Shown here in pieces: positions 1,601 through 48,330 of a stretch of 48,428 nt of DNA; the stretch's first letter is position 1, and every line of letters starts with the position of its first letter. This stretch comes from a virus. Taxonomy: Duplodnaviria; Heunggongvirae; Uroviricota; Caudoviricetes. The DNA is taken from the IMG/VR virus record IMGVR_UViG_3300045988_145381. One strand, given 5' to 3'. Under the pieces are notes generated by a model. It was not told the origin of the DNA, searched no databases, and was given only the letters and a program-made list of their open reading frames with translations. Made by a program: the position numbers and the translations under genes.

Positions 1601-1603
1601 GAC

Positions 1604-1630
1604 AAGGCCCGATAGCGGGCCTTAATTTTT
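1604..1630. terminator. hairpin terminator between convergent tfa genes
   Basis: aaggccc/gggcctt stem followed by a T-run, between the two convergent tfa ORFs. Confidence 0.5.
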
Positions 1631-22375: not shown

Positions 22376-22956
22376 CCATTAGCAAGATACTGAACAAATC
22401 CCTCATGCGTTTCATGCGCGTCGTGGTACTGACGATAAACATCCAGCAACAATGCAATTTCCATATCCGTCGCGGGAATACGTTCTTTATCAATAGCCAG
22501 GTACTTAATTTGAACAACAGGGGAAGAATTATCGTCTTCTTCCTGCGGCTGTTCATCGCTTAACATTTCGTCAAGCTCTGCATCATTAAACCCAAGCAGA
22601 TCAATATCAAAATCATCATCCATTAACTCTTTGACTTCTTCGGCCAGAAGCTGCATATCCCAGCCAGCATTTAAGGCCAGCTTGTTATCTGCAATCCTGT
22701 AAGCCTTCTTCTGTTTTTCAGAAAGGTTACTCAACCGAATCGCCGGAACTTTATCCATTTCCAGAATTTCGGCTGCTGCAAGCCGACCATGCCCCGCAAT
22801 CAGTTCATTCTTTTCATCGATCAGCACAGGATTAGTGAAACCGAACTCACGGATACTGTTCACCAACTGTTCAACCTGCTCATCTGAATGAGTCCGTGAA
22901 TTTTTGGCGTATCTGAGCAGCTTACCGACTGGTAAATATTCGATTTTTAGAGCCAT
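22366..22956 (-). CDS. ParB-like nuclease-domain protein
   Basis: 196-aa ORF with ParB N-terminal domain pattern (...NPVLIDEKNELIAGHGRLAAA...); paralog of 25623..26246; overlaps the TerS start. Confidence 0.65.
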   Translation of the reverse strand: MALKIEYLPVGKLLRYAKNSRTHSDEQVEQLVNSIREFGFTNPVLIDEKNELIAGHGRLAAAEILEMDKVPAIRLSNLSEKQKKAYRIADNKLALNAGWDMQLLAEEVKELMDDDFDIDLLGFNDAELDEMLSDEQPQEEDDNSSPVVQIKYLAIDKERIPATDMEIALLLDVYRQYHDAHETHEGFVQYLANGCK

Positions 22957-23513
22957 TTTTTAACCGCCATAACACAACAGGTTAAAGAAAACTGTTTAAC
23001 TTATTGATACTAAAAGAGAAAAATGACGATCTTTTTACTCATAAAAAATCACACAAACCAGCATAATCATCTGATTTTATTAAGTTTTTATAAGTAAAAA
23101 GGATCTTGAGATGGTGTTTTGGTTAAAAGATTGGATGTATTTGCATGATTTATAACGATTTTTATCAGAACAACATCACATTGGTTAAAGATCTGCGCGT
23201 ATCTTGATGATCTAAAAGAAAATTTTCTACTTTCTTTTTACCAGCACAAATACAGCAAAAAATCACGTTTTCCCGATATTTTTCAATGAGATGAGTAAAT
23301 TTCTTTTACCGCAACTTTTAACCTAACTTTTTTCACGTTTAGCTAGCCGAACATCGGGGTTCGAATGACCCGCATCCAACGCTTTTGGTCAGAAGGACCC
23401 AATTCTGCCGGACGATGAAACGATGCTCGTGCTCCCCCACAGACAGCCAGCGAGCGACGCTACAGAACACAGTGAATACACTATGCATAACAACACCATC
23501 AACCACACGATGA

Positions 23514-24233
23514 TTAACGAGAGAAGGTCTTAGAAAGAATGTCATCAATAGCCTTTGTGACTTCATCAGCAAACGCATCCTCACCAGCACGCAGCGCCAC
23601 GCCATGCCAATCAAGACGCTGCGAATAGTTAGGTTGCTGGATAAACGTAAGGATCAACGTAGGACGCCGCCCAACGCGCTGCCAGACGCCTGGTTGAAGC
23701 GGGTTACTTGTACCAGGTCGAACAACAAAAAACTCCGTAGGCTTGCCCTGACGGCGATTTTGATGCGCATCTCGCTGAACTCTTAGGCCAGATAAGACCT
23801 GCTGTAATTGCCCCCGCGAAATATTCCCGTATTTGTCCAGCTTTGCGCCGGGACCAGGAGCAAGCTGCCAGCCGTTAGGCAAATATCCACCAGCCCTTAG
23901 CGCCCCTTCTGAGCGTTTGTACTGTCGTTGGCCACCTTCGATTTGCGGAGTCAACGTTACAGGGGCTGGCGTTCCTCCCCATTCACGAGCATACACAATG
24001 GCTGTAGGATCACTCTTCTTTGCGGCCAAAACGTAAGTAGAGTTCTGAATCCACGGCGTGGGCCTGTCAAATACCCGATTAATTTCATTCTTAATCGCAG
24101 CCTGAGAAGCCTTTGCCGTTCTGGTTGCCGCAAGCGCCATTGCGAACGGCAATTCGCGTTCTTCAAGGCGCTGGAGTTGTCGTTGAATATCCTGAGAAGA
24201 AAAATCCATCTTTATCTCAATTCTGTCAGCCAC
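23514..24233 (-). CDS. hypothetical protein
   Basis: 239-aa ORF downstream of the ParB-methyltransferase gene; no recognisable motif. Confidence 0.45.
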   Translation of the reverse strand: MADRIEIKMDFSSQDIQRQLQRLEERELPFAMALAATRTAKASQAAIKNEINRVFDRPTPWIQNSTYVLAAKKSDPTAIVYAREWGGTPAPVTLTPQIEGGQRQYKRSEGALRAGGYLPNGWQLAPGPGAKLDKYGNISRGQLQQVLSGLRVQRDAHQNRRQGKPTEFFVVRPGTSNPLQPGVWQRVGRRPTLILTFIQQPNYSQRLDWHGVALRAGEDAFADEVTKAIDDILSKTFSR

Positions 24234-24249
24234 CAGCGCCTCCTACACA

Positions 24250-25629
24250 CTACTTAATCAACGGCCGGAAAGCCGCCAGCACATCATCAGATCGTCCGAT
24301 TGTTGAACCACCAGGCAACGGCAACTCAAACTCAAAACGAACAGCTTTCTCCAGACTCGCCCAACTAAGGGAATCATCGTTAATGACGTGCAAATACCAG
24401 CTCTTACAGTTGAATATTGACCGCTTAATCCTGAAACCATGTACACGACACAACTGCTTCACTTCATCATCAGAGTGGAACTTCTGGTAAAACCAGTGCC
24501 CCTTCCGGTACAACGCGGTAAAACCGTTATGATCAATAAAATAAAGCCGGCTTTTGGAACTCGCCGCTTGTGTTTGCTTCAGGACTGTTTCCAGCTCTCC
24601 ACGGCTACGACCAGAAAAGAATATTGACCCACCAGCTTTACACAGGCCTTTCAGAACCGTCAGAACGGACCATTCAGCCTCGACACTGTCGACCGAGTTC
24701 AAAACGCTATCGCAAATCACGTAGTCGTAACGCCCTCGCGTTTTTAAGTCATCCACCAGCGTATCAATCATCCGGTTTGTTGCAGCCCTATCCAGAGTGT
24801 TTCCTGCGCCCTTACGGCGGAAAAGCTCGAGATCATGCAGGTTATACCCCTTTGCCCTGAGCATTCGCGCGTAGTCTCCCTGCCCCGAACCAAAATCAAT
24901 TCCTCTTGGCGTCTTGGCAATGATCGGGAGGATCAACGACTCATACAGGTTTGATTTCAGGCTGCCACCATTACGCAACCGCATAAGCTGCGCATACGTC
25001 TGGATGTATGTTGTTTTCTCCAGATGAGAATACTCAAATACACCATAAGTTTTATTCAGATAACTTTGGTATTTTTCCTTCTCAACATCAGGGATCACAA
25101 ACACCGTTAGCGGTGTGCGCGTCATCTTCGCTGCTAATGCATACTGAGCACAGTGAATAACCTCACCAGACTGAGTAGCAACACAACCACCCCACGGACC
25201 ATACTTGATAACCAGTTCCGCTATGTTCTTTCGAACATATGCCATTTTCGCGCGCATATTGCCTGAGATCTGGCTTGCCGATACCTGAACAAAACCATGC
25301 TTATCTTCCAGACCGGACACCCTGCAACGCTCATCTCCGCTATCAAAATCCGTTCCGTTATGCAGTTGGTTAAACCGTACTTCGTCGTATACCGTCGTTT
25401 CACAGGGCAACACATACACCGCAGCACGCGTTATTCCCAACTTACGTAGCGCCTTCGTCCTTTGGTGTCCCGCCACCAGCAAATCGCCGCGCACTATCAA
25501 TGGCTTCACAAGCCCCAGCTCCCTGACGCTTTCCGCCAGCCTCGCAAGATCATCCTCACCGATAAAACGCGGGTTATATTCCGCGCCGCGTAGGTGCGTT
25601 ATGTCGTAATTGAGGTGAAGCATCAGCAC
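24250..25629 (-). CDS. ParB-like N-terminal domain fused to class I SAM-dependent methyltransferase
   Basis: 459-aa ORF; N-terminus ParB-like (...LIVRGDLLVAGHQRTKALRKLG...); motif I IDFGSGQGDYARML and motif II-like YDYVICDSVLN. Confidence 0.65.
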   Translation of the reverse strand: MLMLHLNYDITHLRGAEYNPRFIGEDDLARLAESVRELGLVKPLIVRGDLLVAGHQRTKALRKLGITRAAVYVLPCETTVYDEVRFNQLHNGTDFDSGDERCRVSGLEDKHGFVQVSASQISGNMRAKMAYVRKNIAELVIKYGPWGGCVATQSGEVIHCAQYALAAKMTRTPLTVFVIPDVEKEKYQSYLNKTYGVFEYSHLEKTTYIQTYAQLMRLRNGGSLKSNLYESLILPIIAKTPRGIDFGSGQGDYARMLRAKGYNLHDLELFRRKGAGNTLDRAATNRMIDTLVDDLKTRGRYDYVICDSVLNSVDSVEAEWSVLTVLKGLCKAGGSIFFSGRSRGELETVLKQTQAASSKSRLYFIDHNGFTALYRKGHWFYQKFHSDDEVKQLCRVHGFRIKRSIFNCKSWYLHVINDDSLSWASLEKAVRFEFELPLPGGSTIGRSDDVLAAFRPLIK

Positions 25630-26246
25630 ACCTCCCCAGCCAGCAATGCGGATACAAATCCGATATAGCTGCCATTATCATCAACATAACGAGACACCGC
25701 GCAGTCAAAACGATCCGCTTCCTCATCCGTTGCCGGGATTTTATGACCTCCAAATGACAGGTACTGAACTTTTACGCCTGATTTGGCCTCATCCTTCTCA
25801 AATGGGATATCCATACCCTCTGTGTCATCGTAGACCGCCGCACTCAATAAGTTATCCAGTTCGCGCTGAGTAAAACCAATTGAGTCCAGAGCAAAATCAT
25901 CGGCCGCAAGATCTGCAAGCTCCGCGCTTAACAACTCTTCATCCCAACCAGCATTCAGCGGAATACGGTTGTCGGCCAGACGATATGCCTTCTTCTGATT
26001 CTCCGTTAGCCCAGCCAGAACAATGCAGGGAACATCATCCATCCCCAACTGAGTGGCCGCAGCAATTCGACCATGACCAGCAATTACAACGTTGTTCTCG
26101 TCTATCAGGATCGGATTAGTCCATCCGTACTCCTGTATGCTGGCAACAATCTGATCTACCTGCTCCACGGAGTGTGTGCGAGCGTTCTTTTCATAACCAA
26201 TCAACACAGAAAGTGGTAAAGAAACCACATTAAGATGTTTTGTCAT
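25623..26246 (-). CDS. ParB-like nuclease-domain protein
   Basis: 207-aa ORF, paralog of 22366..22956 (...NPILIDENNVVIAGHGRIAAA...QKKAYRLADN...); coupled to the methyltransferase gene. Confidence 0.65.
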   Translation of the reverse strand: MTKHLNVVSLPLSVLIGYEKNARTHSVEQVDQIVASIQEYGWTNPILIDENNVVIAGHGRIAAATQLGMDDVPCIVLAGLTENQKKAYRLADNRIPLNAGWDEELLSAELADLAADDFALDSIGFTQRELDNLLSAAVYDDTEGMDIPFEKDEAKSGVKVQYLSFGGHKIPATDEEADRFDCAVSRYVDDNGSYIGFVSALLAGEVC

Positions 26247-28314: not shown

Positions 28315-28425
28315 TCTCCGGTTTAACCAGGGCGGGTATCGCTCGGTTTCGGGTATAACCTTAGGAAATTTTTTCCCACCTGTAAAGCACTTTTTATATA
28401 AATCTATAATTATATAATTCTATGA
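28315..28425 (-). promoter_or_regulatory. conserved promoter-leader element, copy 1
   Basis: Near-identical to 34827..34940 and 44347..44457; gene-direction read gives TTTACA-17bp-TAAGGT, a -10-like TATACC, a conserved leader and ggaga Shine-Dalgarno; AT-rich palindrome upstream. Confidence 0.6.
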
Positions 28426-29007
28426 CACTTGCCAGAGAGCATCATGCAACTGGATACCTCCGTTGCACTGGTTGCCCCAGCCATGCCAGCCATCAGGTAA
28501 ATCACCGCGAGCAAATAGCTCAATACGAGGAACATCACCTAACAGTCTTACCAGCTTGTCACGAACCACATCAGGCTTCCGTGAATGTTCCAGACGAGGC
28601 GATGTAAACGACTGAATGATCCCCGCATCAAGACGTGTCGGTAGTTTGCCTTTCACTGCAAACAAGCAATCTTCACTGTTTGCACGAGTCATATGCCCCA
28701 TCCCCATCACCAGCTTATCTGGTTGTCGGCTACCACATTTGTTCCATGTGAAGCCCTTCATGGTCATAAGCCTGAATCCCCATGCTTTCACCACCAGCAA
28801 CGCTTCTTCTGGCTGAGTCGGAACCCACCACATGGCCAACAAACACGATTCAGGATTAGCAAGCTGCCAGACAGGAATACGAGCAATATCCTCAGCTTTC
28901 ATCGTTGGATACTTAAAACCAGCTCCACGATTCCCATCCTTACACTTATCTTTGTATTCCCAGGGGGGATCTGCATAAATCAGATTAAACAATGCAATTG
29001 CCTCCAT
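28420..29007 (-). CDS. MT-A70-family N6-adenine DNA methyltransferase
   Basis: 195-aa ORF with the DPPW catalytic motif (...IYADPPWEY...). Confidence 0.7.
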   Translation of the reverse strand: MEAIALFNLIYADPPWEYKDKCKDGNRGAGFKYPTMKAEDIARIPVWQLANPESCLLAMWWVPTQPEEALLVVKAWGFRLMTMKGFTWNKCGSRQPDKLVMGMGHMTRANSEDCLFAVKGKLPTRLDAGIIQSFTSPRLEHSRKPDVVRDKLVRLLGDVPRIELFARGDLPDGWHGWGNQCNGGIQLHDALWQVS

Positions 29008-29315: not shown

Positions 29316-29391
29316 TGGTGGCCCCTACCGGATTTGAACCGATGACCGTGCGATTATGAGTCGCCTGCTCTAACCACTGAGCTAAGGGGCC
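29316..29391 (-). tRNA. tRNA, anticodon CAU (Ile2-like or Met)
   Basis: 76-nt cloverleaf GGCCCCTTAGCTCAGTGGTTAGAGCAGGCGACTCATAATCGC...GGTTCAAATCCGGTAGGGGCCACCA with encoded CCA; 5' half matches E. coli ileX-type tRNA as recalled from memory. Confidence 0.85.
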
Positions 29392-33761: not shown

Positions 33762-34829
33762 TCAGGCTTTCAATAGCGATTCTTTCAGATATCGGGCATC
33801 AGCCAGGGCGTTTGGAGTAATCTTGCGAACCCATGCATTACGGGTTGGACTCCACTTAAAGGCGCGTGATTTAAGCAGCGAACGAATGTTTGCCTCTGGT
33901 TTGCCAGGGAAATAAAACAGGATGCGGTTATCCTCTGGATCTATCTCCATAGAAAAGCCGTCGTATTCTTCGCGCTGTGCTCCTGTTACAGACTTGACCG
34001 ATTCAAGCTCCTTAATACGGCTCTGTAGTCGTTTGATTTCGGCGTTATTGTTGCTCAGTGCGTATGAAGGGAATCCGATGCGCCCACAGAAATCTCCGGC
34101 CAGTAACTCTTTGGCTTCGCTTTCTGTAAACCTGAGATCGATTAATGCAGAAAGCTGCTGTAATTGGTCTTTTTTGTATTTGCGAATGGCCTTATTTGCG
34201 GCCTTCATTTTGACGTGTGACTTCATGCAGCCTTGCAGTTTACGAAGCAACTTAAATAGCGCATCAGGATCATCAGACGAAATTCCATTACGACCAACAC
34301 CTGCGGCTTTGCTCTCGTAGTGTGATGCTTTACTTTCGCATTCAACAAACGCTTTTCTGAATAACGCATCAGCTTTAGACAAACGGCGGCGATGGCCTTT
34401 CGCGCTATAATGGTCAACTAAAATCGGCTGGCCTAACGGGATCACATCCAACAGGTCATGCGCTCGCTTATGCGCTACCGCTCCTTCTTTTCTGGCTTTT
34501 TCTGCACGAGCAATATATCGGGCAAGACGCGCGTTCTGGCGTTCCTGATAGGTGTTTACGTAATCATCTCCGCGCTGCTGCTGTTCAAGCCATGCTTTGC
34601 GCAGATCTTCTGTTACGTCCACCAGCTCCGCAGGGATACAACCAGTTTGGGCTTCATAAGAGTAACCATCCTCATAGATGCGCCCATCGTCTTCAACAAA
34701 GAAAAAGGTTTCGTGCTCATCGCTTTTGACCATACGACCATTAACATGGCGTAATAGGTAGCCAGTATCAGTGCTTAACAGGCTGTTAGGGTTGTTGATC
34801 CAGTCAGAAATAATTACTTGTTTATTCAT
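33762..34829 (-). CDS. DUF3560-like protein
   Basis: 355-aa ORF; C-terminal ...FKWSPTRNAWVRK... resembles the DUF3560 signature recalled from memory; downstream of promoter-leader copy 2. Confidence 0.5.
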   Translation of the reverse strand: MNKQVIISDWINNPNSLLSTDTGYLLRHVNGRMVKSDEHETFFFVEDDGRIYEDGYSYEAQTGCIPAELVDVTEDLRKAWLEQQQRGDDYVNTYQERQNARLARYIARAEKARKEGAVAHKRAHDLLDVIPLGQPILVDHYSAKGHRRRLSKADALFRKAFVECESKASHYESKAAGVGRNGISSDDPDALFKLLRKLQGCMKSHVKMKAANKAIRKYKKDQLQQLSALIDLRFTESEAKELLAGDFCGRIGFPSYALSNNNAEIKRLQSRIKELESVKSVTGAQREEYDGFSMEIDPEDNRILFYFPGKPEANIRSLLKSRAFKWSPTRNAWVRKITPNALADARYLKESLLKA

Positions 34830-35000: not shown

Positions 35001-35378
35001 TTACTCTCTTCGCTTTTTCAAATAGTCGACAACATACGCCCTGGCTTTTGCCAACTTCCGGCGATACTGTCTGAGACTAAGAGAAAGGGCGTGGGCTTTA
35101 TCAATATGCGGTGCATTTATGTCGAGGCCCCGAATCTCCCACGCCCCGTATTCAATTCGGACAACCAGCGCCGCAGTCTCATCAACTACCGTGAGGGCCG
35201 TCACCGCTCCCTCGATACTGGTTTCCAGTGAGTCATTTGGTGCGCCGCCTCCTCCGGTAAACTGGCAACGCGTAACCATCATCATTTCTAACATCGACGC
35301 GAAACCGCTACGGGCGTTGCAGCCATTGCGCACCCACAGCGCCCATAGCTCAAACAAGCTATCCAGATCGCGTCTCAC
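35001..35378 (-). CDS. antitermination protein Q-like (putative)
   Basis: 125-aa ORF; ...LFELWALWVRNG... and C-terminal basic region resemble Q21/QuuD-type antiterminators recalled from memory; sits at the end of the cro-side operon. Confidence 0.45.
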   Translation of the reverse strand: MRRDLDSLFELWALWVRNGCNARSGFASMLEMMMVTRCQFTGGGGAPNDSLETSIEGAVTALTVVDETAALVVRIEYGAWEIRGLDINAPHIDKAHALSLSLRQYRRKLAKARAYVVDYLKKRRE

Positions 35379-35381: not shown

Positions 35382-35714
35382 TCAGATCTCCCGTATCGTG
35401 ACGGGATAAAGCGCCTCTACCTGCTTTTTCTTCATGATGTAGACGTCTGTTCGCACACCTTTAGTGTCGACACAATCAATCGTCCCATCGTCATAAAACA
35501 CCATGAAATCAAGTTTATAAACGACACCACCAGGCAGATGAAAAGGCACCTGCATAAGAAACGTCACAACGCGGCCAGCTTTTCTCAGTAGCTTCAGTTC
35601 GCAGTAGTAATCAGCCTCTTTTTTGCTATCAAAAGCGATATCATCGACAACCGTTTTTTTATTGCCGTATTTGCTTTTCCTTGTCGCTGGTTTGCGAAAG
35701 CCGGTATATCTCAT
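35382..35714 (-). CDS. DUF1064-family phage protein
   Basis: 110-aa ORF MRYTGFRKP...KYGNKKTVVDDIAFDSKKEADYY... typical of the family. Confidence 0.55.
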   Translation of the reverse strand: MRYTGFRKPATRKSKYGNKKTVVDDIAFDSKKEADYYCELKLLRKAGRVVTFLMQVPFHLPGGVVYKLDFMVFYDDGTIDCVDTKGVRTDVYIMKKKQVEALYPVTIREI

Positions 35715-36115
35715 TTGGTATCCCCTGGTACTTCACCAAGACTAAGATCAAACCCAATTTCGTCTTTAACTGACTGCGGCAACAGCTCCCACGTCTGCGC
35801 ACACAAAAATTCATCGGTGCCATAACGCTCAACAAAGCGAGCACAATTACTCAGGGGAGGGTGACGAACGGCAATATGCGGAGGCACGCGCCCACCACCA
35901 GGCACAACACCGCGATGATGTGGTGCGCACAACCCAAAGCTATGGAAGTGGCAATTTTCATCAACGCTGCCGTAATCAGGATCGTGATGTAGCTCCGTCC
36001 ACAGCTCTGGATTCTCAATTTCACGGCCATCAATAATGCAAGCTATGCAACCCACGTGAGTGAGCACCGCTTGTATATAAAGTTTCTCTTTCTTCGTTGG
36101 TGTACGTCCGTTCAT
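35711..36115 (-). CDS. HNH-type nuclease, Ref-like (putative)
   Basis: 134-aa ORF with Cys/His-rich HNH-like motifs (...HVGCIACIIDG...ELHHDPD...CHFHSF...). Confidence 0.45.
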   Translation of the reverse strand: MNGRTPTKKEKLYIQAVLTHVGCIACIIDGREIENPELWTELHHDPDYGSVDENCHFHSFGLCAPHHRGVVPGGGRVPPHIAVRHPPLSNCARFVERYGTDEFLCAQTWELLPQSVKDEIGFDLSLGEVPGDTK

Positions 36116-36348
36116 CAGCGCCCCTTACCATTGATAAAGAGGTTGAACTCGTTGATTAACTGGACATACATGCTTCTGGCCGCGTAGTTCTTTGCCAGCT
36201 CTTTACGGGATGAGATCCCGCAAAACTCACGCAGAATCACAGAGGCCTCAGAACTGTTTGAAACGTTCTTCCCTGTTTTACTGGTCAGAAAGCGCCAGAA
36301 TTGGGGATTCTGGCAATGCATCGCAGCACCGCGAACATAACTACTCAT
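36115..36348 (-). CDS. hypothetical protein
   Basis: 77-aa ORF coupled in the early operon. Confidence 0.35.
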   Translation of the reverse strand: MSSYVRGAAMHCQNPQFWRFLTSKTGKNVSNSSEASVILREFCGISSRKELAKNYAARSMYVQLINEFNLFINGKGR

Positions 36349-36860
36349 TGATGGCCCCCGTCATTTCTGGTGCTTTTCACCGTGCGGCTTCTTAAAAACC
36401 TGCCATCACGAACAACAGACACTTCTCGTTTACCCAACCTCATTTCACGGCGGTAACATTCAGAAAATGCCTCGTCCGGCATCATATAAATGCGACGCTT
36501 CGCCTCCGTATCCAGAAGGGAACGGCTTGGGGTTACATATAAAAACGACTCATCAATAGGGACAAAACCACGAGCAAGAATTGCTGGCAGAATGCCAGGA
36601 AGAACGCAGAAAACAGCTCCACGATGCAGCAACATCTGGTACTCCATGACCTCCGTTATCCCCGTGACGACTGTTACGGTGTCACGTCTGTTACGGCTGG
36701 CAACCAGTCGCTGCACACGTCCAATTTTCTGATCTACAGATAGATGTTTGCTATCGTTATCAATATGATCGATAACAAATCCTTTAATCGTTTGATCAAG
36801 GTAGTGCATCACCTGCGATTGAATCTGGTGATTATCACCAAAGAAGGCCAGAATCATCAT
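36345..36860 (-). CDS. hypothetical protein
   Basis: 171-aa ORF in the early operon. Confidence 0.4.
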   Translation of the reverse strand: MMILAFFGDNHQIQSQVMHYLDQTIKGFVIDHIDNDSKHLSVDQKIGRVQRLVASRNRRDTVTVVTGITEVMEYQMLLHRGAVFCVLPGILPAILARGFVPIDESFLYVTPSRSLLDTEAKRRIYMMPDEAFSECYRREMRLGKREVSVVRDGRFLRSRTVKSTRNDGGHQ

Positions 36861-37351
36861 TCCTCAAGCCTCCCAAGTGCTGAACGCCGGGCGTTGCTAA
36901 TCTCCTTATGAATCAGCTCGATATCGCTGGAATCTTTATTCTTAAGCTCCAGCACGGCAATCGCATCACGAACCTCTGAAACGGTTACGTGTGAGTGTTT
37001 CCAGCGAGCAATGAATCGCGGACCGCGTAGATTGCAACGCTCCGCAGGCATCCCCAGCTCAGAGAAAACCGCTTTCAGCCTTGATAAGCAGTTAACAGGG
37101 AGATTCCCTTTGATCTTGTTCTGCCGAACCGATGTGCCATCGCTACGCTGGCGCTGACGTTCGGCAAAATCTGCCGCCCATTGCTGGACGTTAATCCGGC
37201 CTTCCGAATACGCCACCAGCAGCGTCAGGTTATCCGCACGAGGGAATCTCTCGAAGCGATACCAGGCACCAATCAGTGATGACGTAAAGCCAAACTTTCT
37301 GGCAACACCAATTTGGCCTCCATTTTCGTCAACCCACTCCTGAAAGGTCAT
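36857..37351 (-). CDS. Cro/CII-like HTH regulator (putative)
   Basis: 164-aa ORF divergent from the CI-like gene; N-terminal HTH-like segment (...GGQIGVARKFGFTSSLIGAW...). Confidence 0.45.
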   Translation of the reverse strand: MTFQEWVDENGGQIGVARKFGFTSSLIGAWYRFERFPRADNLTLLVAYSEGRINVQQWAADFAERQRQRSDGTSVRQNKIKGNLPVNCLSRLKAVFSELGMPAERCNLRGPRFIARWKHSHVTVSEVRDAIAVLELKNKDSSDIELIHKEISNARRSALGRLEE

Positions 37352-37370
37352 TTAACGAACTCCAGTTAAA

Positions 37371-37489
37371 ACCACGATATGTGGTATTAAAACCACATAT
37401 CGTGAGTTTTTCAATGGGCGAAACAAAAAATAACCTTCTATTTGTGGTCCACCTCTCGTCTTACCATGTGAAAACCACTAAATGTGGTA
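37371..37489. promoter_or_regulatory. immunity operator region with three ACCAC-N5-GTG(G/A)(T/G) sites
   Basis: accacgatatgtggt (37371..37385), accacatatcgtgag (37392..37406), accactaaatgtggt (37475..37489) in the divergent intergenic region; tataaat -10-like element at 37493..37499. Confidence 0.6.
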
Positions 37490-37525: not shown

Positions 37526-38188
37526 ATGAAAAGCAACGACGAGAACATCAAGAAAGAAATAGGTCTGCGCATTCAGACTCTACGGAAACAATCCGGCATG
37601 ACTGCCGGAGATCTCCAGCAAGTCACTGGAATAGGCTTAAGCACCTTGCAGAACTATGAGGCCGGATTAAGACAACCATCTATACCTGCCATCAAGAAAA
37701 TCGCGCACGCCCTGAAAGCATCAGCGCCTTACATCGCGTGCTTAACAGATAACCCGTTCCCACCCCAGAATACTAACGCTCCTGTTATTCCTGGGCTTGT
37801 AGCTATAAAAAATGACATAGCATCGCACGCCGGAGAAAAGCCAGTGCTGGCGATAGAACAGGAGATTTTACGAAGCAAGAACATCAACCCATCGTCTCTG
37901 TCAGTTCTCCAGAGCAACGATGAGCTAAAGCTAATGTCACCAACAATATCCCCTGGCTCCCAAGTCCTGATTAATACAGACGATACAGAGATTCATGAGG
38001 GGATCTATGCCCTTGAAGACAGAAATGGCCTGGTTGTTTTGAGGCACTGTAGAGTCATACCGGGTGACAATGCTGTTATGCTGTCAACCGAAAGGGATGC
38101 TGAAATGAACACTAAGCATCTGAATAACGAGGAATTTAAGCGTTATAAAGTTCTTGGCCGCGTAGTTAGTGTTGTCAACTGGTTATGA
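37526..38188 (+). CDS. CI-like repressor (HTH domain plus S24 LexA-like peptidase domain)
   Basis: 220-aa ORF; N-terminal HTH (...QSGMTAGDLQQVTGIGLSTLQNYEAG...), Ala-Gly in HAGEK, C-terminal S24-like region. Confidence 0.75.
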   Translation: MKSNDENIKKEIGLRIQTLRKQSGMTAGDLQQVTGIGLSTLQNYEAGLRQPSIPAIKKIAHALKASAPYIACLTDNPFPPQNTNAPVIPGLVAIKNDIASHAGEKPVLAIEQEILRSKNINPSSLSVLQSNDELKLMSPTISPGSQVLINTDDTEIHEGIYALEDRNGLVVLRHCRVIPGDNAVMLSTERDAEMNTKHLNNEEFKRYKVLGRVVSVVNWL

Positions 38189-38280
38189 TACACAGCACGG
38201 CGAAAGCCGTGCATTTCTACGCTCAAAAAAACCACGCTTTGTGGTTTTGACAACATGTGAAAGTATAAAAGAGGCTACGC

Positions 38281-39967: not shown

Positions 39968-39990
39968 AACCATAAAAAAGGCCCCCGAAG
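39968..39990 (-). terminator. rho-independent terminator (minus-strand orientation)
   Basis: ggcccccgaaggggcc hairpin with a T-run on the minus strand. Confidence 0.5.
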
Positions 39991-40001
39991 GGGCCTAATC
40001 G

Positions 40002-40124
40002 CTACTTGCTGCTAATGTTTATCGTCACATTTAGAGCGTTATCAGTAATCTTCCAACCCTCCCCATGTGGCGTAAACAAAGCTCCAGTAACAACGATAAA
40101 AATACACATACAGTATTTTTTCAT
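40002..40124 (-). CDS. small hydrophobic peptide (40 aa, MKKYCMCIFIVVTGALFTPHGEGW...)
   Basis: Read directly from sequence; Shine-Dalgarno-like aaggg upstream; terminator 39968..39990 immediately downstream. Confidence 0.25.
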   Translation of the reverse strand: MKKYCMCIFIVVTGALFTPHGEGWKITDNALNVTINISSK

Positions 40125-40520
40125 TGTATGGCCCTTACAGGCCGTTTCACGGCATCCCCACCGACGAAAACAACGCGAGAGCAAGCACGGCTGCTTGTGC
40201 TTGCATGTACGGCAACGGAGAATCCTCCCCTAAAGTCGGTGCCCGGGTGCGAATCGGCGGGAAGGTCCACAGGTATTTTACGATTATTTTAAGATTAGTA
40301 ATAGGAAAGAAATTAAACGAAAAAACTCGTTTATTTTCACAAAATCAGTAACCTACCCACAATCTGTGAGTTTGCAGGCACAACAAGAACCACAATTTTT
40401 TGAAGCATAATAGTGGACTATTATTACCTTTTGGGTAAAATTAACTTGCTGCTTGTGCTTGCGTGGTTGTTTATACAACAACGTAATGCTGAAAGGACCG
40501 CGAATCCGATCAGCACGAAA

Positions 40521-40549: not shown

Positions 40550-40690
40550 TTTCTGCCTACCAATAAACCCACGCTATGTGGTTGTCTCTGTTAAAATCCC
40601 GCCGTATTGACATGAATGCGCCATTGGTGGACACTTTCCGAGCCGTAGCAAAATCTACGGTCGGGATTGGCGTCCCGATTGCACAATGGC

Positions 40691-40716
40691 GCATACCGCG
40701 TTAGCGGTTTTTTTAT
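40691..40716 (+). terminator. intrinsic terminator-like hairpin in the ant leader region
   Basis: accgc-gtta-gcggt stem-loop followed by 7 T. Confidence 0.45.
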
Positions 40717-40876
40717 GCGTAAAGCACTGCTACACCCAAATTATGGTGGGGCGTGCGGGGGCGGAGAAATCCGCGCCGGGTTTGTCATTGTGCCGGTTAC
40801 GCCAACCCTGTACGTCTCACCACCATATTGATTGGCGTCATTGGTGGTGATAGTTCCTTTAATCGGAGATATCACA

Positions 40877-41068
40877 ATGACAAACCTACCCCATGACTAT
40901 TACGTCAACCTCGTAAAGATCCTTCTCAAGAAAGCCTCATACGCCGATAAATTCCGCCTGGCTGAAATCATCGAGCGCGAAGCTATGCGCATCGCCAGCA
41001 ACGATAACGCTGTTTCTGACGCAAAAATCTCCCTCGTAACCAAAGTAGTTATGGGAGGTGCAAAATGA
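40877..41068 (+). CDS. small protein overlapping the ant start (Icd-like position)
   Basis: 63-aa ORF (MTNLPHDYYVNL...) within ORF 40832..41068; ATGA overlap with the ant-like gene. Confidence 0.35.
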   Translation: MTNLPHDYYVNLVKILLKKASYADKFRLAEIIEREAMRIASNDNAVSDAKISLVTKVVMGGAK

Positions 41069-42246
41069 AAACGCTTCCGACCGTTAACACCCTACAGCCT
41101 ATCCTGCATAACCAGCTCCCCGTTATCACTACTGAACTACTGGCGCAATTGTATGGAACCGAGCGCCAACGTCTGACAAACAATTTCAATAGAAACAAGG
41201 AACGTTTTATAGAAGGTAAACACTTTTTTAGGATAGAAGGTAAAGAGTTACGAGAGTTGAAGAACAAAAACTCTTTAAGAGTTCCTGTGAGAGTAGTTAA
41301 CGAACCATCTTTAAGAGGGTTACAAATTCCCCCGAAAGTTCGCTCCCTCATCCTCTGGACAGAACGCGGGGCTGCACGTCACGCTAAAATGCTTGAAACT
41401 AACCAAGCGTGGGATGTGTTCGAACGGCTGGAAGACTGCTATTTCAACCAGAACGCGCAAACGGCCGCGACCGTAACCGTCTCACCAAACAATGCTCGTG
41501 AGGTTGTCGATACGCTCAACGCCAAACCGATGTTTTACATTAAAGTGTGCAACAACGAGCCACTCACAACCTCAGCCGATGTTGCCCAGGCATTCAGCAC
41601 CACAAACAATTCCATCGTTATGGCCATCGATGCGTTACGCATTCCTCGCACAGCTGCGGCGCGTCATTTCTTTAAAGAGCAACGACCGTTGGAAGGAAGC
41701 GACCGCGAAATAACAATCTATCGCATGACAAAAGACGGATTTACCTTGCTCATGGAAAGTATCGACGGTCCAGGCGTGAAGGATATCAAGCTGGCCTACA
41801 TTGAAGCCTTTAACGCTATCAGCAGCGTGTTAAAAACACAGTACGAGCGCGATCTGGCTAAACGACTGTACCAGGAAAAAACGATTATCCGCGCGGCAAC
41901 AGAGCATAATCGGCTATTAACGGAACCGAACTACAGGAAGGAACTAATCAAGGAGTTTGACAAGGCAACAGGGAAAACCAAAGCGGCGCTAAGTCTGCCA
42001 GCAATGACTCAGGAAAATGTGATATCAGCCTTACTTCTTGATCTGCTCAGAAACGCCAGAGCACTTATCAGCTTTGACGAAAACCTGAATCCTCAGCTCA
42101 AGCTACTACCACCGACAGGCAAAGTAGTCGACCAGGCTGATCACAACAGCATACTCAGCGTACTGGATGCAAACCTGCCAGCCAGGACACTACAGGATCT
42201 GATAAAAACATGTGCTGATAAGCTGGCACAGAAAAGCAGACCATAA
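41065..42246 (+). CDS. ant: antirepressor (ORF6N/KilA-N-like plus Rha/Ant-like domains)
   Basis: 393-aa ORF; N-terminal ...ITTELLAQLYGTERQRLTNNFNRNKERFIEGKHFFRIEGKELREL... and central Rha/Ant-like region; hairpin terminator at 42252..42271. Confidence 0.65.
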   Translation: MKTLPTVNTLQPILHNQLPVITTELLAQLYGTERQRLTNNFNRNKERFIEGKHFFRIEGKELRELKNKNSLRVPVRVVNEPSLRGLQIPPKVRSLILWTERGAARHAKMLETNQAWDVFERLEDCYFNQNAQTAATVTVSPNNAREVVDTLNAKPMFYIKVCNNEPLTTSADVAQAFSTTNNSIVMAIDALRIPRTAAARHFFKEQRPLEGSDREITIYRMTKDGFTLLMESIDGPGVKDIKLAYIEAFNAISSVLKTQYERDLAKRLYQEKTIIRAATEHNRLLTEPNYRKELIKEFDKATGKTKAALSLPAMTQENVISALLLDLLRNARALISFDENLNPQLKLLPPTGKVVDQADHNSILSVLDANLPARTLQDLIKTCADKLAQKSRP

Positions 42247-44502: not shown

Positions 44503-44802
44503 TCAGATGTTAAACGCTATTCGTTTTCCTGTGGGAAGCTCAACATCCAGGCTTAATTTGCCTCCCATAGCTTCAACGTAACGCTTTAATGTCGCCAGCT
44601 TTAAATCATTTCCGCGCTGCTCCAGCTTTGTTACTGCTGGCTGGCTTATACCCATCGCCTCAGCAACCTGTTTTTGTGATAACTGGAGTTCTTCACGCAT
44701 CATCTGCAAGCCGACCTCAAGAATCATCTCATCTGCCATTTCTTTAATTCGCGCCTGGCTTTCCGGTGAACGGCTGGCAATCGCCTCATCTAATGTTCTC
44801 AT
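44503..44802 (-). CDS. higA: HigA-like HTH antitoxin
   Basis: 99-aa ORF with XRE-type HTH (...LSQKQVAEAMGISQPAVTKLEQ...), overlapping the stop of the upstream toxin-like gene. Confidence 0.65.
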   Translation of the reverse strand: MRTLDEAIASRSPESQARIKEMADEMILEVGLQMMREELQLSQKQVAEAMGISQPAVTKLEQRGNDLKLATLKRYVEAMGGKLSLDVELPTGKRIAFNI

Positions 44803-45155
44803 TACTTGCTCTCCAGTGTGTTCAGATGTGCTGCAAACTCATCCTCAGCTATACGCACCAGTTTTTCATAAAACCGCTTATCGTTACTTTTGTCTCCTGC
44901 ACAAAGAACGATGGCCCGGCGAATCGGATCGAACGCATAAAAGGCTCTTATCGGACGGCCAGAAAACTGAACGCGAAGCTCTTTCATATTTTTGTACCGA
45001 GAACCTTTTACGGTATCGGCATATGGCCTGGGTAACTCAGGTCCGTAAACCTGTAGCTTTTTCAAATCAGCCAAAACCTTTTCCTGAAGAGCGTCTTCTT
45101 GCTCATTTAGCCAGTCGTCAAATCGCTGGCTAAAAAGTACCGTCCACATGCTCAA
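44802..45155 (-). CDS. higB: HigB/RelE-family toxin-like protein
   Basis: 117-aa ORF upstream of and coupled to the HTH antitoxin (toxin-first order); two TATAAC-N6-GTTATA-type palindromes at 45159..45204. Confidence 0.6.
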   Translation of the reverse strand: MSMWTVLFSQRFDDWLNEQEDALQEKVLADLKKLQVYGPELPRPYADTVKGSRYKNMKELRVQFSGRPIRAFYAFDPIRRAIVLCAGDKSNDKRFYEKLVRIAEDEFAAHLNTLESK

Positions 45156-45980: not shown

Positions 45981-46379
45981 TTATTATATCTACGATGGTA
46001 GGAAATCTTTTCCTATGTGGCAATAGAAATTTACTACATTGCGTATAAGACAAGTTTTCTATGTCTAATAGGAAATGATGTTTCTTACGTTTTATCGCGT
46101 TCTGATGGCTACTGTGTGCGTATTTATCGACGTTTATTGATAAGGCTCGCCCCTTCCTCCTGCAAAGCCCGGCCGTAGGCCTTATTTCGGCCTTATATAA
46201 ATTGATTTTGTATAGTTCGAAACGCGCCGTTTCGAAAAGGATGATCAGGCTGCTCCATGCCTCCGGCAAGTGCCGGAGGAGGTATATTTGAGCGTAGCGA
46301 CTCGAACCGGCGCGAGCTTTAGCTCGCTGCAAGGGCGAACATATTCACAGGCAAAGCCTGCGTAAGTTAAATAAAGAAA

Positions 46380-46611
46380 GTTTTAATAAAAGAAAGTGAT
46401 TTTGCATTTATTTGTTTAGTGCATCTATTATAAAAAACCATTTGCATATACATATCAAAACTGTGGATAACTTTATTAGCCGATGCCTGTAAAGGCGATA
46501 TTTTTGCTGTGTTCAGGTTTAGAGAAAATTAATTTAGATTGTTTTTTGAACAGATATTTTATTGCGACGTAGATAATCCTCCGGTAAAACCGGATTCATC
46601 ATTCAGGTGGG
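46380..46611. promoter_or_regulatory. candidate replication origin (AT-rich region with DnaA box) downstream of repA
   Basis: tgtggataa (reverse complement of TTATCCACA) at 46462..46470 within an AT-rich stretch about 140 bp beyond the repA stop. Confidence 0.45.
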
Positions 46612-47451
46612 TTAATGTTGGAGTGATTTCCAGGTCTTTCTTAGCCTGTTATAACGCTGCTCAACGAGGGAGCGTAAATATGCAAGGTCAGCACCAGGAT
46701 ACATGCCATCAGCAAATTCCTGGCTAACCTCTCTAGTGATTTGATGGCGAAGTTCGGCCTCTCCCTTTTCCTGAACAAGACGCGCAGCTCTCTCCGCTGC
46801 TTTCTGTTTTGCCTTTATCTCTCTGGCCGTCTTCCTCTGACGCCATACATTCTCCATCTGCTCCTGAATAACAATACGCTTATAATCAGCCTCCGTTATC
46901 GCTTTTTTAAGCCGTTCGCTATTCTTCGCATTGAAGTAATTAAGTTTCTGGCTAACCGCACGTCTCCATGCTTGTTCAGTAATACCAACTGTTTCCAGCA
47001 GTTGATCACGAATCTCGATTTTCGCTGGCCAATACTGTTTATTCACCCGATCCCAGCGACGTTCATAATCAATAAAACCTAACTCTTTCAGTTGCGACAA
47101 CGCCCTTGTACAGCGCGTTATAGACTTGTTCCCAGCTTCGGATACGGTAGACAGGCCGCAAAAATCAGCCAACGCCTCAGCACTGGCCAGAACCCGCTTA
47201 GAAATGATGTTTACATGGTGCAAAATCGCAGCAATCACAGCATTAATCGCCCGACGACGATGCTCGTTTATCCGGCGTTTCCGCTCTGACGGTTGATTAA
47301 CGTAGAACGCAACCTCACACGTAAGATCACGACCATTAATGCGCTGTAAAGCATCAGATAACACCAGCGGCAGCTTGTGCGTATGGTGCTTTGGAGGCTG
47401 GAACTCCGGCGACAAATTACAAACGTAAGCTGAACGTAGAGACGGCATTGG
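46612..47451 (-). CDS. repA: IncFII-type replication initiator RepA
   Basis: ORF 46612..47604 trimmed to MDRPMPSLRS...; strong resemblance to R100/R1 RepA1 as recalled (...KSITRCTRALSQLKELGFIDYE...). Confidence 0.75.
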   Translation of the reverse strand, partial: PMPSLRSAYVCNLSPEFQPPKHHTHKLPLVLSDALQRINGRDLTCEVAFYVNQPSERKRRINEHRRRAINAVIAAILHHVNIISKRVLASAEALADFCGLSTVSEAGNKSITRCTRALSQLKELGFIDYERRWDRVNKQYWPAKIEIRDQLLETVGITEQAWRRAVSQKLNYFNAKNSERLKKAITEADYKRIVIQEQMENVWRQRKTAREIKAKQKAAERAARLVQEKGEAELRHQITREVSQEFADGMYPGADLAYLRSLVEQRYNRLRKTWKSLQH

Positions 47452-47494
47452 TCTATCCATATGTTCGCTCTTGCGTCCACGGAAAACCAACGTA

Positions 47495-47576
47495 TAATGG
47501 GAGTTGTCGAGGCGCCCATGGTTAGTTGTTGGTTTTCCTTTCCGTGGATGTCGCAAGAAGCCCGCAGATTTATCTG
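47495..47576 (+). ncRNA. candidate antisense RNA to the repA leader (CopA-like)
   Basis: Plus-strand TTGCGT-16bp-TATAAT promoter at 47461..47488, long imperfect stem, terminator hairpin gcccgcagatttatctgcgggc plus ttttt at 47548..47576. Confidence 0.45.
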
Positions 47577-47775
47577 CGGGCTTTTTGTTTCCATATCTGG
47601 TCACTTTTCAACCAGACACCCACAATCATAACCACGTTACGTGGTTTTAAGAGAACTCTACCACAACACTTTCGGTCATGCACGAAGTCTCTCACTGATC
47701 GAACGATAATCCACCAGTAAAAGGATCTAAATTGGATCTCGTTTTGCGAGCATCATACTACTGGCCTAACTCCAG

Positions 47776-48330
47776 TCAATGATTCCCAGCCGGAAACCTG
47801 CGGTAAAGCGTGGATAAGGTAACATCGAAGATAATCGCTATCCGCTTACGTGAAACACCATTCGCAATAAGCCTTCCGATCTGTTCCCATTGCTCTGGTG
47901 CCAATTTTGAGCGGCGTCCTCCTATCCTGCCGTTAGCCCTTGCCACCGCCAATCCTGCACGCGTTCTTTCAATCATATTTTCCCGCTCCATCTCTGCGAC
48001 TGCACTCAGCATCGTGTAGGCAAAGCGGCCAATTGAAGTGCTAATTTTTATCCCTTCCGTAATCGAAATAAACTCAATGTTGTTTGATAAAAAATAGTTT
48101 AGTAAATCAACAAGATGAATCAGAGAACGCCCCATTCGGTCCAGCTTCCAGACAATAACCGTATCGCCCGGCCGTAACACCTTCAGTAGCTTATCAAGTC
48201 CTGGTCGTTTTGATTTAGCACCGGATATTTTATCTTCAAAAATCCGGTCACATCCTGAACTCCTGAGCGCCTCCAATTGTAATTCCAAATTCTGGTCAAA
48301 AGTTGACACCCTCGCATAACCATATTGCAT
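47776..48330 (-). CDS. serine DNA invertase (Hin/Gin/Cin/Pin family)
   Basis: 184-aa ORF MQYGYARVSTFDQNLELQLEAL...DRMGRS... with catalytic Ser motif and C-terminal HTH; start wraps to window position 30; crossover site upstream. Confidence 0.9.
   Translation of the reverse strand: MQYGYARVSTFDQNLELQLEALRSSGCDRIFEDKISGAKSKRPGLDKLLKVLRPGDTVIVWKLDRMGRSLIHLVDLLNYFLSNNIEFISITEGIKISTSIGRFAYTMLSAVAEMERENMIERTRAGLAVARANGRIGGRRSKLAPEQWEQIGRLIANGVSRKRIAIIFDVTLSTLYRRFPAGNH

Follow-up and report, generated by a model that had tools for sequence, protein, structure and literature searches.

A p-p47 family phage-plasmid without recognisable phage-type replication genes may use its IncFII-type RepA replicon for lytic replication

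This locus raises the question of how a phage-plasmid amplifies its DNA in lytic growth when the early operon beside its repressor gene offers no recognisable means of doing so. The window, by which we mean the whole 48,428-nt stretch that was analysed (IMG/VR record IMGVR_UViG_3300045988_145381), had been described in a sequence-only reading as encoding, from a cro-like gene towards a Q-like gene, only small early proteins (164, 171, 77, 134 and 110 aa), with no initiator, helicase loader, helicase or primase among them and with a plasmid-type RepA as the sole initiator. The ORFs are arranged as described, all on the minus strand (Table 1), and adjacent ones overlap by 1–4 nt, which fits a single operon. 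An HMM search of the early ORFs, the check which that reading had proposed, returned zero replication initiator, helicase or primase domains. Pfam, PHROGs, NCBIfam and PADLOC all gave no initiator, loader, helicase or primase match for them, and PADLOC found zero defence systems among them. RepA is indeed the only initiator in the window (PF02387 and NCBIfam RepA_IncFII_LM). Judged from its sequence, the element is a phage-plasmid without phage-type DNA replication genes, with RepA/oriR as its sole replicon. We put a probability of roughly 0.55 on lytic replication through derepressed RepA/oriR, as in N15, with an early operon that is not a replication module. Upkeep of the quiet plasmid and supply of the lytic burst would then probably fall to a single replicon.

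Table 1. Features of the window discussed in the text (positions count from the first nucleotide of the window)
Feature	Position	Strand	Evidence and remarks
Q-like candidate late regulator, 125 aa, last early-operon gene	35001–35378	−	phrog_5285; role from position
DUF1064 protein, 110 aa	35382–35714	−	PF06356, E = 6.8e-19; phrog_190, E = 9.4e-38, PHROGs label 'Holliday junction resolvase'
Ref-type RecA-dependent HNH nuclease, 134 aa	35711–36115	−	PF16786, E = 1.6e-11
77-aa ORF, third of conserved trio	36115–36348	−	phrog_5358; no assigned function
171-aa ORF	36345–36860	−	Three-layer alpha/beta fold, weakly P-loop-kinase-like; no assigned function
164-aa ORF, early operon gene 1	36857–37351	−	N-terminal Cro/YdaS-type helix-turn-helix; ~90 C-terminal residues without assigned function
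Three predicted operators, AACCAC-N5-GTGGT type, between cro-like and cI-like genes	37370–37386, 37391–37407, 37473–37489		Motif
cI-like repressor, 220 aa	37526–38188	+	HTH_3 (PF01381); phrog_4 over full length; phrog_6201 'CI-like repressor' over C-terminus
Perfect predicted operator between cI-like gene and 124-aa/ParA operon	38230–38246		Motif
Predicted operator upstream of isrK-like and C4 antisense RNAs and ORF6N/Rha antirepressor gene (P1-like module)	40567–40583		Motif
Putative oriR downstream of repA	46360–46475	−	DnaA box TTATCCACA (46462–46470), three ATGCA-containing repeats, A+T-rich stretch
repA, IncFII-family initiator	46612–47460	−	Listed ORF extends to 47604; conserved protein start near 47460 or 47448
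CopA-like antisense RNA gene	47471–47597	+	Promoter TTGCGT-16-TATAAT (47471–47498); ~95-nt transcript (47503–47597)
Perfect predicted operator AACCACGTAACGTGGTT in repA leader	47630–47646		Motif and conservation
Promoter-like site TTGACT-16-TATGAT, directed at repA	47752–47779	−	Conserved in five lineages

Elsewhere in the window, Pfam, PHROGs and NCBIfam found no replication domain in the other non-structural ORFs (21.8–33 kb and 38–46 kb), the structural genes having been assigned through the annotation of relatives. The same three resources found no protelomerase, primase or helicase domain in the window, and no ORF in it matched RepL or another Rep family; a second replicon was not detectable. 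A 355-aa DUF3560 protein encoded downstream of the Q-like gene matches phrog_19458, labelled 'primase', over its C-terminal half. Pfam, NCBIfam and a PDB sequence search found no primase domain in it, and we rejected it as a primase because the label is uncorroborated by any domain model; the literature on DUF3560 was uninformative on function. Within the early operon, the 134-aa protein is named 'Ref family recombination enhancement nuclease' in RefSeq. The 125-aa protein has a single NCBIfam-type match, full-length and weak, to the PA0613 family (E = 2.5e-4, below the cut-off), and only its position makes it a candidate Q-like late regulator. On the RepA/oriR reading the early operon comprises a Cro-like regulator, two small orphan proteins, Ref, a DUF1064 nuclease and a late-gene regulator, and is not a replication module.

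The homologues recovered for the 164-, 171- and 77-aa proteins form narrow unannotated families only, and PDB sequence searches with the 164- and 171-aa proteins, as with the 355-aa protein, gave nothing meaningful. The label 'cro-like' fits the first of the three weakly: over its first ~55 residues it can be superposed on structures of Cro and YdaS. For this N-terminal domain Foldseek ranked Cro of Xfaso 1, Cro of N15 and YdaS highest, with target TM-scores of ~0.6 and non-significant E-values. The protein matches phrog_7452 and, over residues 1–53, phrog_35 ('transcriptional repressor'); its AF2 model is poor (pLDDT 66), and only 15 clusters of homologues were found. The 171-aa protein, which has no Pfam, NCBIfam or PADLOC match, gave an AF2 model with a pLDDT of 82 over residues 1–145. 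Its fold resembles (d)NMP, adenylate or shikimate kinases, with TM-scores to kinases of 0.3–0.57 when compared with PDB and BFVD by Foldseek. The family amounts to 23 clusters among 1.84 billion representatives, all of them stand-alone proteins of ~145–155 aa and always encoded in the same cassette. For the 77-aa protein only 11 close homologues were found, none annotated.

A phage initiator or an initiator–loader pair could be hidden in this trio, with a lytic origin in or near it and RepA restricted to plasmid maintenance as in P1, but we think this unlikely. The gene order is that of lambda (cI, cro, the O and P position, nin-type nucleases, Q), and all the relatives examined, including those with as little as 22% identity and a siphovirus background, strictly keep the succession of cro-like, 14x-aa and ~77-aa genes beside the repressor gene. 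The 171-aa fold is P-loop-NTPase-like, and the gene contains two 16-nt direct repeats (36664–36696). However, no HMM or sequence match connects the trio with any initiator, loader or helicase. Walker A is absent from the 171-aa protein (FFGDNHQ) and from its whole family, and what the fold matches, with low TM-scores, are small-molecule kinases. The search for iterons, which covered the early operon and its surroundings, found only short two-copy repeats, with no iteron array and no A+T-rich tract, and distant relatives have a gene 1 product of only 77–82 aa, in which the 164-aa C-terminal domain is missing. Among phage records the trio was seen only in Yersinia phages, three in number and near-identical. 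Of the 75 copies of the early region in complete E. coli genomes, 74 are on plasmids, whereas a self-sufficient replication module would be expected in integrating prophages too. As modelled, the 171-aa protein lacks initiator features; a role for it in replication is still conceivable because the trio is so strictly conserved beside the repressor gene.

Three conserved early proteins without an assigned function could hide a replication role. Also unlikely, in our view, is the suggestion that the trio, with its P-loop-fold member of about 145–170 aa, forms a new lytic replication switch acting on the IncFII replicon, whether by neutralising the antisense RNA, by modifying RepA or by a change from theta to rolling-circle replication, or else that it represents an unrecognised class of initiator.

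The RepA replicon, as far as its sequence can be read, is complete, with an IncFII-type RepA, an antisense RNA and an oriR with a DnaA box. RepA matches PF02387 (IncFII_repA; E = 5.5e-44, residues 57–323 of the listed ORF) and NCBIfam NF040977 (RepA_IncFII_LM; 232 bits, cut-off 70). It is a protein of ~280 aa with the IncFII_repA domain only; orthologues in Salmonella, Citrobacter and Serratia, annotated or called, have 277–278 aa, and the nearest PLSDB RepA proteins outside the p-p47 family are only ~37% identical. The predicted antisense RNA has a 5' stem-loop and a terminator hairpin (fold −40.6 kcal/mol, z = −6.2) and falls below threshold with the Rfam CopA model. Copy-up mutations published for the p-p47 family, 58–86 nt upstream of repA, would map to its gene, depending on the repA start chosen. 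A conserved hairpin with two GATC sites (47723–47738) follows the repA promoter-like site. Downstream of repA, the DnaA box and repeats of the putative oriR are invariant in the E. coli, Salmonella, Citrobacter, Enterobacter and Serratia elements, and by analogy with the IncFII oriR this segment would act as the origin. There is no copB-size ORF between the invertase gene and repA; the conserved element upstream of repA, at the place where transcriptional control would be expected to act, is a predicted phage operator.

By its relatives, the window belongs to the p-p47 phage-plasmid family. It matches the 48.5-kb plasmid of ATCC 25922 with 97% identity over 95% of 15.4 kb, and CP032086.1 (ATCC 25922 pL25922_3), which is among the members of the family (bioRxiv 10.64898/2026.08.19.745698), carries the same proteins. 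Members are about 47–49 kb, found mostly in E. coli, and have no typeable replicon or relaxase (bioRxiv 10.64898/2026.08.19.745698). The matching plasmids are typed as non-mobilizable in PLSDB, the 171-aa gene and the repA region having 63 plasmid matches there each, all non-mobilizable. The early cassette and the RepA replicon are confined to one and the same kind of record. We also considered and rejected placing the element as a 'p0111'-type or pSLy3-type phage-plasmid; the literature has p0111 as P1-like and pSLy3 in the SSU5 supergroup. Copy number in the p-p47 family is raised up to 404-fold, from 1.2–2.6, by CopA/CopT mutations, and this rise leads to piperacillin-tazobactam heteroresistance; in 1 of 15 high-copy mutants (DA81419) the SNP lay instead in a putative transcriptional regulator encoded by the phage-plasmid (bioRxiv 10.64898/2026.08.19.745698).

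A connection between this replicon and phage immunity is suggested by the predicted operators, whose full consensus is AACCAC-N5-GTGGTT. Over both strands the window holds 11 matches to the motif where 0.42 would be expected, and 0 of 100 shuffles reached 11; the sites that are exact or have one mismatch are all intergenic except that at 8385 (one mismatch), which is within a tail gene. Its presence at OR, after the cI-like gene, at the antirepressor module and in the repA leader is a new observation here. The site after the cI-like gene is conserved in the Salmonella, Citrobacter, Enterobacter and Yokenella relatives. At the repA site, Salmonella (L002 27461), Citrobacter (L005 1401) and Enterobacter (L006 511) have unchanged half-sites around a variable spacer; the half-sites remain perfect although spacer and flanks diverge, in relatives of ~75% identity. 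A distant metagenomic element (L010; 35% G+C, 171-aa homologue with 22% identity) has no strong CCAC-N5-GTGG sites beyond a pair at OR and a third upstream of the IncFII repA that it carries. In the Serratia relative only a half-site is found at the position homologous to the repA operator, and its OR sites differ. A joint change of operator specificity at OR and at the repA site could not be demonstrated, as the enteric relatives and L010 share the CCAC-N5-GTGG half-sites. From the motif and its conservation we infer that the repressor binds the repA-leader site.

The sequence-only reading had left lytic replication to RepA or to a protein such as that of the 171-aa ORF. Its first alternative gains from the complete replicon, the conserved leader operator and the high-copy mutants, while the second gains nothing, since the 171-aa protein offers a weak fold match and neither Walker A, iterons nor a large family.

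Under the proposed mechanism, replication would need host DnaA, DnaB/DnaC and DnaG at the IncFII-type oriR. In the lysogen, the cI-like repressor on the repA-leader operator and the antisense RNA limiting RepA translation would hold copy number near 1–3. Once the repressor is inactivated, repA transcription would rise and outrun the antisense RNA, and the same RepA/oriR would enter runaway theta replication that feeds the lytic burst. Inactivation would come most likely through the ORF6N/Rha antirepressor (41065–42246) under C4-RNA control, because the repressor has no self-cleavage site: its S24-like C-terminal domain, aligned with relatives, lacks the Ser/Lys catalytic pair and has Leu and Arg there. 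Derepression-driven amplification of this kind, and a part for the nucleases in it, is what we infer; Ref and the DUF1064 protein may help to convert circular monomers into packageable concatemers.

The repA operator does not clearly overlap a good −35/−10 pair. The best promoter-like site is ~105 nt upstream of it and the antisense-RNA target region ~35 nt downstream, which may limit the operator to a roadblock action or to an effect on a weak promoter. It also speaks against the proposal that in the p-p47 family high-copy mutants gave no more lysogenisation, with some giving 100- to 10,000-fold less, and that neither mitomycin C nor ciprofloxacin brought about lysis (bioRxiv 10.64898/2026.08.19.745698).

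The closest parallels for derepressed RepA/oriR are N15 and phiKO2, in which binding of CB, the prophage repressor, to operators at the repA promoter reduces repA transcription and copy number (PMC4997575). The element shares with them a single repA for the plasmid prophage, three operators between the repressor gene and cro together with operators upstream of repA, a repressor without self-cleavage residues and an antirepressor. It differs in being circular and myovirus-type, whereas they have a linear genome with a protelomerase. The RepA of N15 is large, of phage type and built of several domains; that of the present element is instead a ~280-aa IncFII-type protein, which would depend wholly on host helicase and primase and be controlled by an antisense RNA as well, with repressor binding at the repA site as a prediction. 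With IncFII plasmids R1 and NR1 the element shares the PF02387 RepA, a countertranscript RNA with stem-loop and terminator in the leader, a downstream origin with a DnaA box, and copy-up mutations in the antisense loop, but it has no copB gene, carries a phage operator in the leader, and its replicon is confined to phage-plasmids. Engineered R1 vectors, in which a lambda promoter and cI857 are placed upstream of repA, amplify on derepression, and the design proposed here matches that of these runaway vectors.

P1 is likewise a phage-plasmid with a myovirus-type virion. Its repressor operators, too, are dispersed over the genome and include one at a replication function, its immunity involves a C4 antisense RNA and an antirepressor, and it also carries Ref and a tail-fibre segment that can invert. 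It has two replicons, the iteron-type RepA/oriR for the plasmid state and, controlled by C1, RepL/oriL for the lytic phase, whereas no RepL or second replicon is detectable in the window. The early operon recalls lambda in having genes at the O and P position, with cro on one side and nin-type nucleases and Q on the other, but it shows neither an O-like nor a P-like domain, and its genes contain no iterons.

IncFII theta replication gives monomer circles, and packaging in tailed phages needs concatemers. The RepA model leaves their source unexplained. Lytic synthesis might instead be recombination-dependent or of the rolling-circle type, with Ref cutting at RecA filaments, the DUF1064 protein processing the products and RepA giving the first templates only. 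Every relative examined keeps a Ref-type nuclease and a DUF1064 protein in its early operon, and the concatemers required are not a product of RepA theta replication. Yet P1 carries Ref, as an accessory recombination enhancer, and has a dedicated lytic replicon all the same; no phage-origin recombinase, SSB or helicase is found in the window; and the idea is less a replacement for the RepA model than an addition to it. We consider it improbable as an explanation of its own.

We give as little credence to an absence of any dedicated lytic amplification, with few virions drawn from the plasmid pool and a repA operator that only tunes lysogenic copy number: p-p49 gives low phage titres, mitomycin C or ciprofloxacin induced no lysis, and transfer was not raised at high copy number (bioRxiv 10.64898/2026.08.19.745698), but near-identical elements have been deposited as phages with Yersinia pestis EV76-CN as the recorded host, the genome carries a full lysis cassette and late operon, and a copy number of 1–3 is too low for a normal burst.

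Lytic replication through derepressed RepA/oriR would bear on phage-plasmids more widely, whose part in carrying resistance genes is gaining recognition. To our knowledge it would be the first case of a host-dependent, antisense-controlled plasmid replicon serving as the lytic replicon of a phage. Repressor control of repA, if true, would provide a testable explanation for the one p-p47 high-copy mutant that maps to a regulator gene and not to repA. If the immunity repressor does directly gate an IncFII-type replicon, a single switch would govern copy number, gene dosage and the start of the lytic cycle.

The sequence-only reading had held that the operon from the cro-like to the Q-like gene encodes small proteins (164, 171, 77, 134 and 110 aa) with no initiator, helicase loader, helicase or primase among them. 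The sizes and places of these ORFs are as it described; all lie on the minus strand, and neighbors overlap by 1-4 nt. Searches with Pfam, PHROGs, NCBIfam and PADLOC recognized only two of the six early-operon ORFs, as a Ref nuclease (134 aa) and a DUF1064 protein (110 aa), and matched no initiator, loader, helicase or primase in any of the six. Replication domains were also absent from the window's other non-structural ORFs, and plasmid-type RepA was confirmed as the sole initiator in the window (PF02387, E = 5.5e-44; 232 bits against NCBIfam RepA_IncFII_LM, cut-off 70). Just past the Q-like gene, a 355-aa DUF3560 protein is encoded whose C-terminal half matches a PHROG with the label 'primase' (2e-37); Pfam, NCBIfam and PDB sequence searches found no primase domain in this protein, and the label is unverified.

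Features of the phage-plasmid discussed in the text
Feature	Position	Strand	Remarks
Structural genes	left 22 kb		myovirus-type
Late region	after structural genes	-	together with methylase and ParB-like genes and lysis genes, all on the minus strand
Immunity, partition, addiction and replication genes	right 11 kb
Tail-fibre-assembly genes	1067-2156		two, oppositely oriented
ParB_N-domain proteins	22366-26246		three
MT-A70 methylase	28420-29007
tRNA gene	29319-29391		late region
DUF3560 protein	33762-34829		355 aa
Q-like	35001-35378	-	125 aa
DUF1064	35382-35714	-	110 aa
Ref-type RecA-dependent nuclease	35711-36115	-	134 aa
77-aa ORF	36115-36348	-
171-aa ORF	36345-36860	-
16-nt direct copies	36664-36696		inside 171-aa gene
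cro-like	36857-37351	-	164 aa
Three operators	37370, 37391, 37473		AACCAC-N5-GTGGT; between cI-like and cro-like genes
cI-like repressor	37526-38188
Perfect operator	38230-38246		after cI-like gene, upstream of 124-aa/ParA operon
ryfA RNA match	39974-40270	-	143 bits (Rfam)
P1-immI-like antirepressor module	40567-42246		operator, then RNAs and two ORFs
Operator, one mismatch	40567-40583		upstream of isrK-like RNA, C4 RNA and ORF6N/Rha antirepressor gene
isrK-like RNA	40642-40714	+
C4 antisense RNA	40739-40827	+
78-aa ORF	40832-41068		antirepressor module
ORF6N+Rha protein	41065-42246
HigB/HigA-type pair	44503-45155		117 + 99 aa
DnaA box	46462-46470		TTATCCACA; downstream of repA, with three ATGCA-containing repeats and an A+T-rich stretch
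RepA	46612-47604		from GTG at 47604
Antisense RNA promoter	47471-47498	opposite repA	TTGCGT-16-TATAAT; in leader
Perfect operator	47630-47646		repA leader
Hairpin	47723-47738		GATCCAATTTAGATCC
Promoter-like site	47779-47752		TTGACT-16-TATGAT; upstream of repA, conserved
Hin-like serine invertase	47776-48330

An initiator of unfamiliar type might be hidden in the early operon, and the 171-aa ORF had been named as a candidate. We consider this unlikely, since the three genes adjoining the cI-like repressor gene (cro-like, 171-aa and 77-aa; the trio) gave no initiator match, and neither an iteron array nor an A+T-rich tract was found in or near them. The best repeat there is two 16-nt direct copies 17 nt apart (GTGACGACTGTTACGG / GTCACGTCTGTTACGG), which sit in different reading frames and so are not explained by an amino-acid repeat. 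The 164-aa protein has an N-terminal helix-turn-helix whose best structural matches, with non-significant E-values, were Cro (Xfaso 1, N15) and YdaS. Its model is poor overall (pLDDT 66) and its C-terminal ~90 residues had no match; this domain lies outside the conserved core, because the first gene of the trio encodes merely 77-82 aa in distant relatives. The 171-aa protein models well (pLDDT 82, residues 1-145) as a three-layer alpha/beta sandwich, nearest, at low TM-scores (0.3-0.57), to small-molecule kinases of the P-loop type and to a handful of unnamed viral proteins. The Walker A motif is absent throughout its family, for which 1.84 billion representatives, searched exhaustively with a profile, yielded just 23 clusters, all stand-alone and ~145-155 aa. 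Homologs of the 77-aa protein are all close and unannotated. Nothing in the trio proteins or their DNA speaks for an initiator.

The window is a nearly complete phage-plasmid of 48.4 kb. Yersinia phages vB_YpM_39, 41 and 44 are 97-98% identical to it, as are (at ~97-99%) dozens of E. coli plasmids that are non-mobilizable and 47-50 kb long, including the 48.5-kb plasmid of ATCC 25922. The p-p47 family of phage-plasmids, defined in 2026, lists CP032086.1 among its members (bioRxiv 10.64898/2026.08.19.745698); since that record, ATCC 25922 pL25922_3, has the same protein set as the window-matching plasmid, the window is a p-p47 element. The family is already described, in a preprint whose text does not mention 'lytic', 'repressor' or 'helicase'. 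Several other loci were noted along the window. One of the three ParB_N-domain proteins encoded upstream of the terminase genes is fused to a methyltransferase, an MT-A70 methylase gene is present, and the tRNA gene is annotated as tRNA-Ile or tRNA-Met in relatives. The plasmid part carries a HigB/HigA-type toxin-antitoxin pair, and the strong ryfA match, which comes directly after the ParA/82-aa partition pair, may mark an sRNA locus or a toxin-antitoxin locus of type I. The invertase gene adjoins the tail-fibre-assembly genes, a layout that suggests a Mu/P1-type invertible host-range segment spanning the window ends.

The start of RepA is most likely near 47460 or 47448 rather than at the GTG, because orthologs are annotated or called at 277-278 aa. 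The predicted antisense RNA, ~95 nt, has a stem-loop at its 5' end and a strong hairpin as terminator (-40.6 kcal/mol, z = -6.2), by sequence the layout of a CopA/RNAI countertranscript. Copy-up mutations of p-p47 were reported 58-86 nt upstream of repA, in what the preprint text calls "CopA loop II" (bioRxiv 10.64898/2026.08.19.745698); their window coordinates depend on the repA start chosen. The DnaA box and ATGCA repeats are invariant from E. coli through Serratia. By RepA, antisense RNA and origin the replicon belongs to the IncFII family, from which it differs in lacking copB, no CopB-sized ORF having been found upstream of repA; in PLSDB the nearest RepA proteins outside this family have just ~37% identity. 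The hairpin directly after the promoter-like site bears two GATC (Dam) sites, both invariant in E. coli, Salmonella, Citrobacter, Enterobacter and Serratia elements.

With both strands counted, the operator motif has 11 matches versus 0.42 expected, a count reached by 0 of 100 shuffles. The copy in the repA leader, to our reading a new candidate repressor site, lies ~105 nt downstream of the promoter-like site and ~35 nt upstream of the antisense target region, and overlaps no obvious promoter. Its half-sites are unchanged in Salmonella, Citrobacter and Enterobacter relatives, in which the 5-nt spacers differ (GTAAC, GTTGT, GATGT) and the sequence immediately downstream is poorly conserved. 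A distant metagenomic element (35% G+C) has only three strong CCAC-N5-GTGG sites, two at its immunity operator region (OR) and one upstream of its IncFII repA, and its repressor shares the recognition-helix motif with that of the window. The Serratia element is the exception: its OR sites differ somewhat in their left half, and the homologous place upstream of repA retains no more than a half-site. Repressor binding at the repA site, and the way it would act there, are inferred.

We put at roughly 55% the probability that derepressed RepA, acting at its own origin, supplies lytic replication; reliance on RepA was the other suggestion of the sequence-only reading, and it gains from the full replicon and the operator at repA. 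In the lysogen, repressor on the leader operator, together with antisense RNA limiting translation, would hold copy number at 1.2-2.6, the range reported for p-p47 (bioRxiv 10.64898/2026.08.19.745698). Loss of repressor would let repA transcription rise until it outstrips titration by the antisense RNA, and replication from oriR would then run away and supply the lytic burst. R1 vectors built with cI857 and a lambda promoter ahead of repA amplify once derepressed, a hand-built version of the proposed wiring. The prophage repressors of N15 and phiKO2 reduce copy number by binding to operators at the promoter of repA (PMC4997575). The p-p47 replicon can amplify far enough, since copy number rises as much as 404-fold in CopA/CopT mutants; in one of the 15 mutants with high copy number, the SNP instead fell outside the repA region, in a 'potential transcriptional regulator' of the phage-plasmid, which would fit derepression of RepA, the gene being unnamed in the preprint text (bioRxiv 10.64898/2026.08.19.745698). 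More speculatively, the Ref and DUF1064 nucleases may help turn circles into concatemers.

Weak points temper this estimate and leave some weight to the alternatives: the Serratia half-site, the lack of promoter overlap, and the finding, in the preprint text, that high copy number alone gave no rise in phage transfer (bioRxiv 10.64898/2026.08.19.745698). Mainly recombination-driven lytic replication and the lack of any real lytic amplification are each improbable next to a RepA-driven burst.

The cI-like repressor has an S24-like C-terminal domain in which Leu and Arg replace the catalytic Ser and Lys, and is probably not self-cleaving; the distant metagenomic homolog keeps the DDSM Ser motif. 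These replacements fit the non-induction by mitomycin C or ciprofloxacin stated in the preprint text (bioRxiv 10.64898/2026.08.19.745698), and point to the P1-like C4-RNA/antirepressor module as the probable route of induction.

Like N15, the element has a single replicon, with operators for the repressor at repA. It falls outside the N15 group: the large RepA and the protelomerase are absent, and its genome is circular. Its parallels with P1 are the virion type of the gene set, operators that are dispersed, immunity through C4 and an antirepressor, Ref, and an invertase adjoining tail-fibre genes; the difference is that it has no second, lytic replicon.

The 171-aa gene and the repA region each occur in 63 PLSDB plasmids, all typed non-mobilizable; across 5,426 complete E. 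coli genomes, plasmids carry 74 of the 75 copies of the early region, and in the phage collection matches to the 171-aa protein are limited to three Yersinia phages. Records that carry the early cassette and those that carry this repA region are all of one kind. The cassette (cI-like repressor, cro-like, 14x-aa and ~77-aa genes, usually followed by Ref and DUF1064) is kept in Salmonella, Citrobacter, Enterobacter and Yokenella elements at ~75% protein identity and in metagenomic contigs at identities down to 22%, with IncFII_repA and ParA genes within a few kb wherever the sequence is long enough. It also accompanies IncFII RepA and ParA on the 44-kb Serratia element pJSRIV006_2 (NZ_CP074139.1), whose head and tail genes are of lambda-like siphovirus type, which indicates that the immunity-replication module has moved between virion types.
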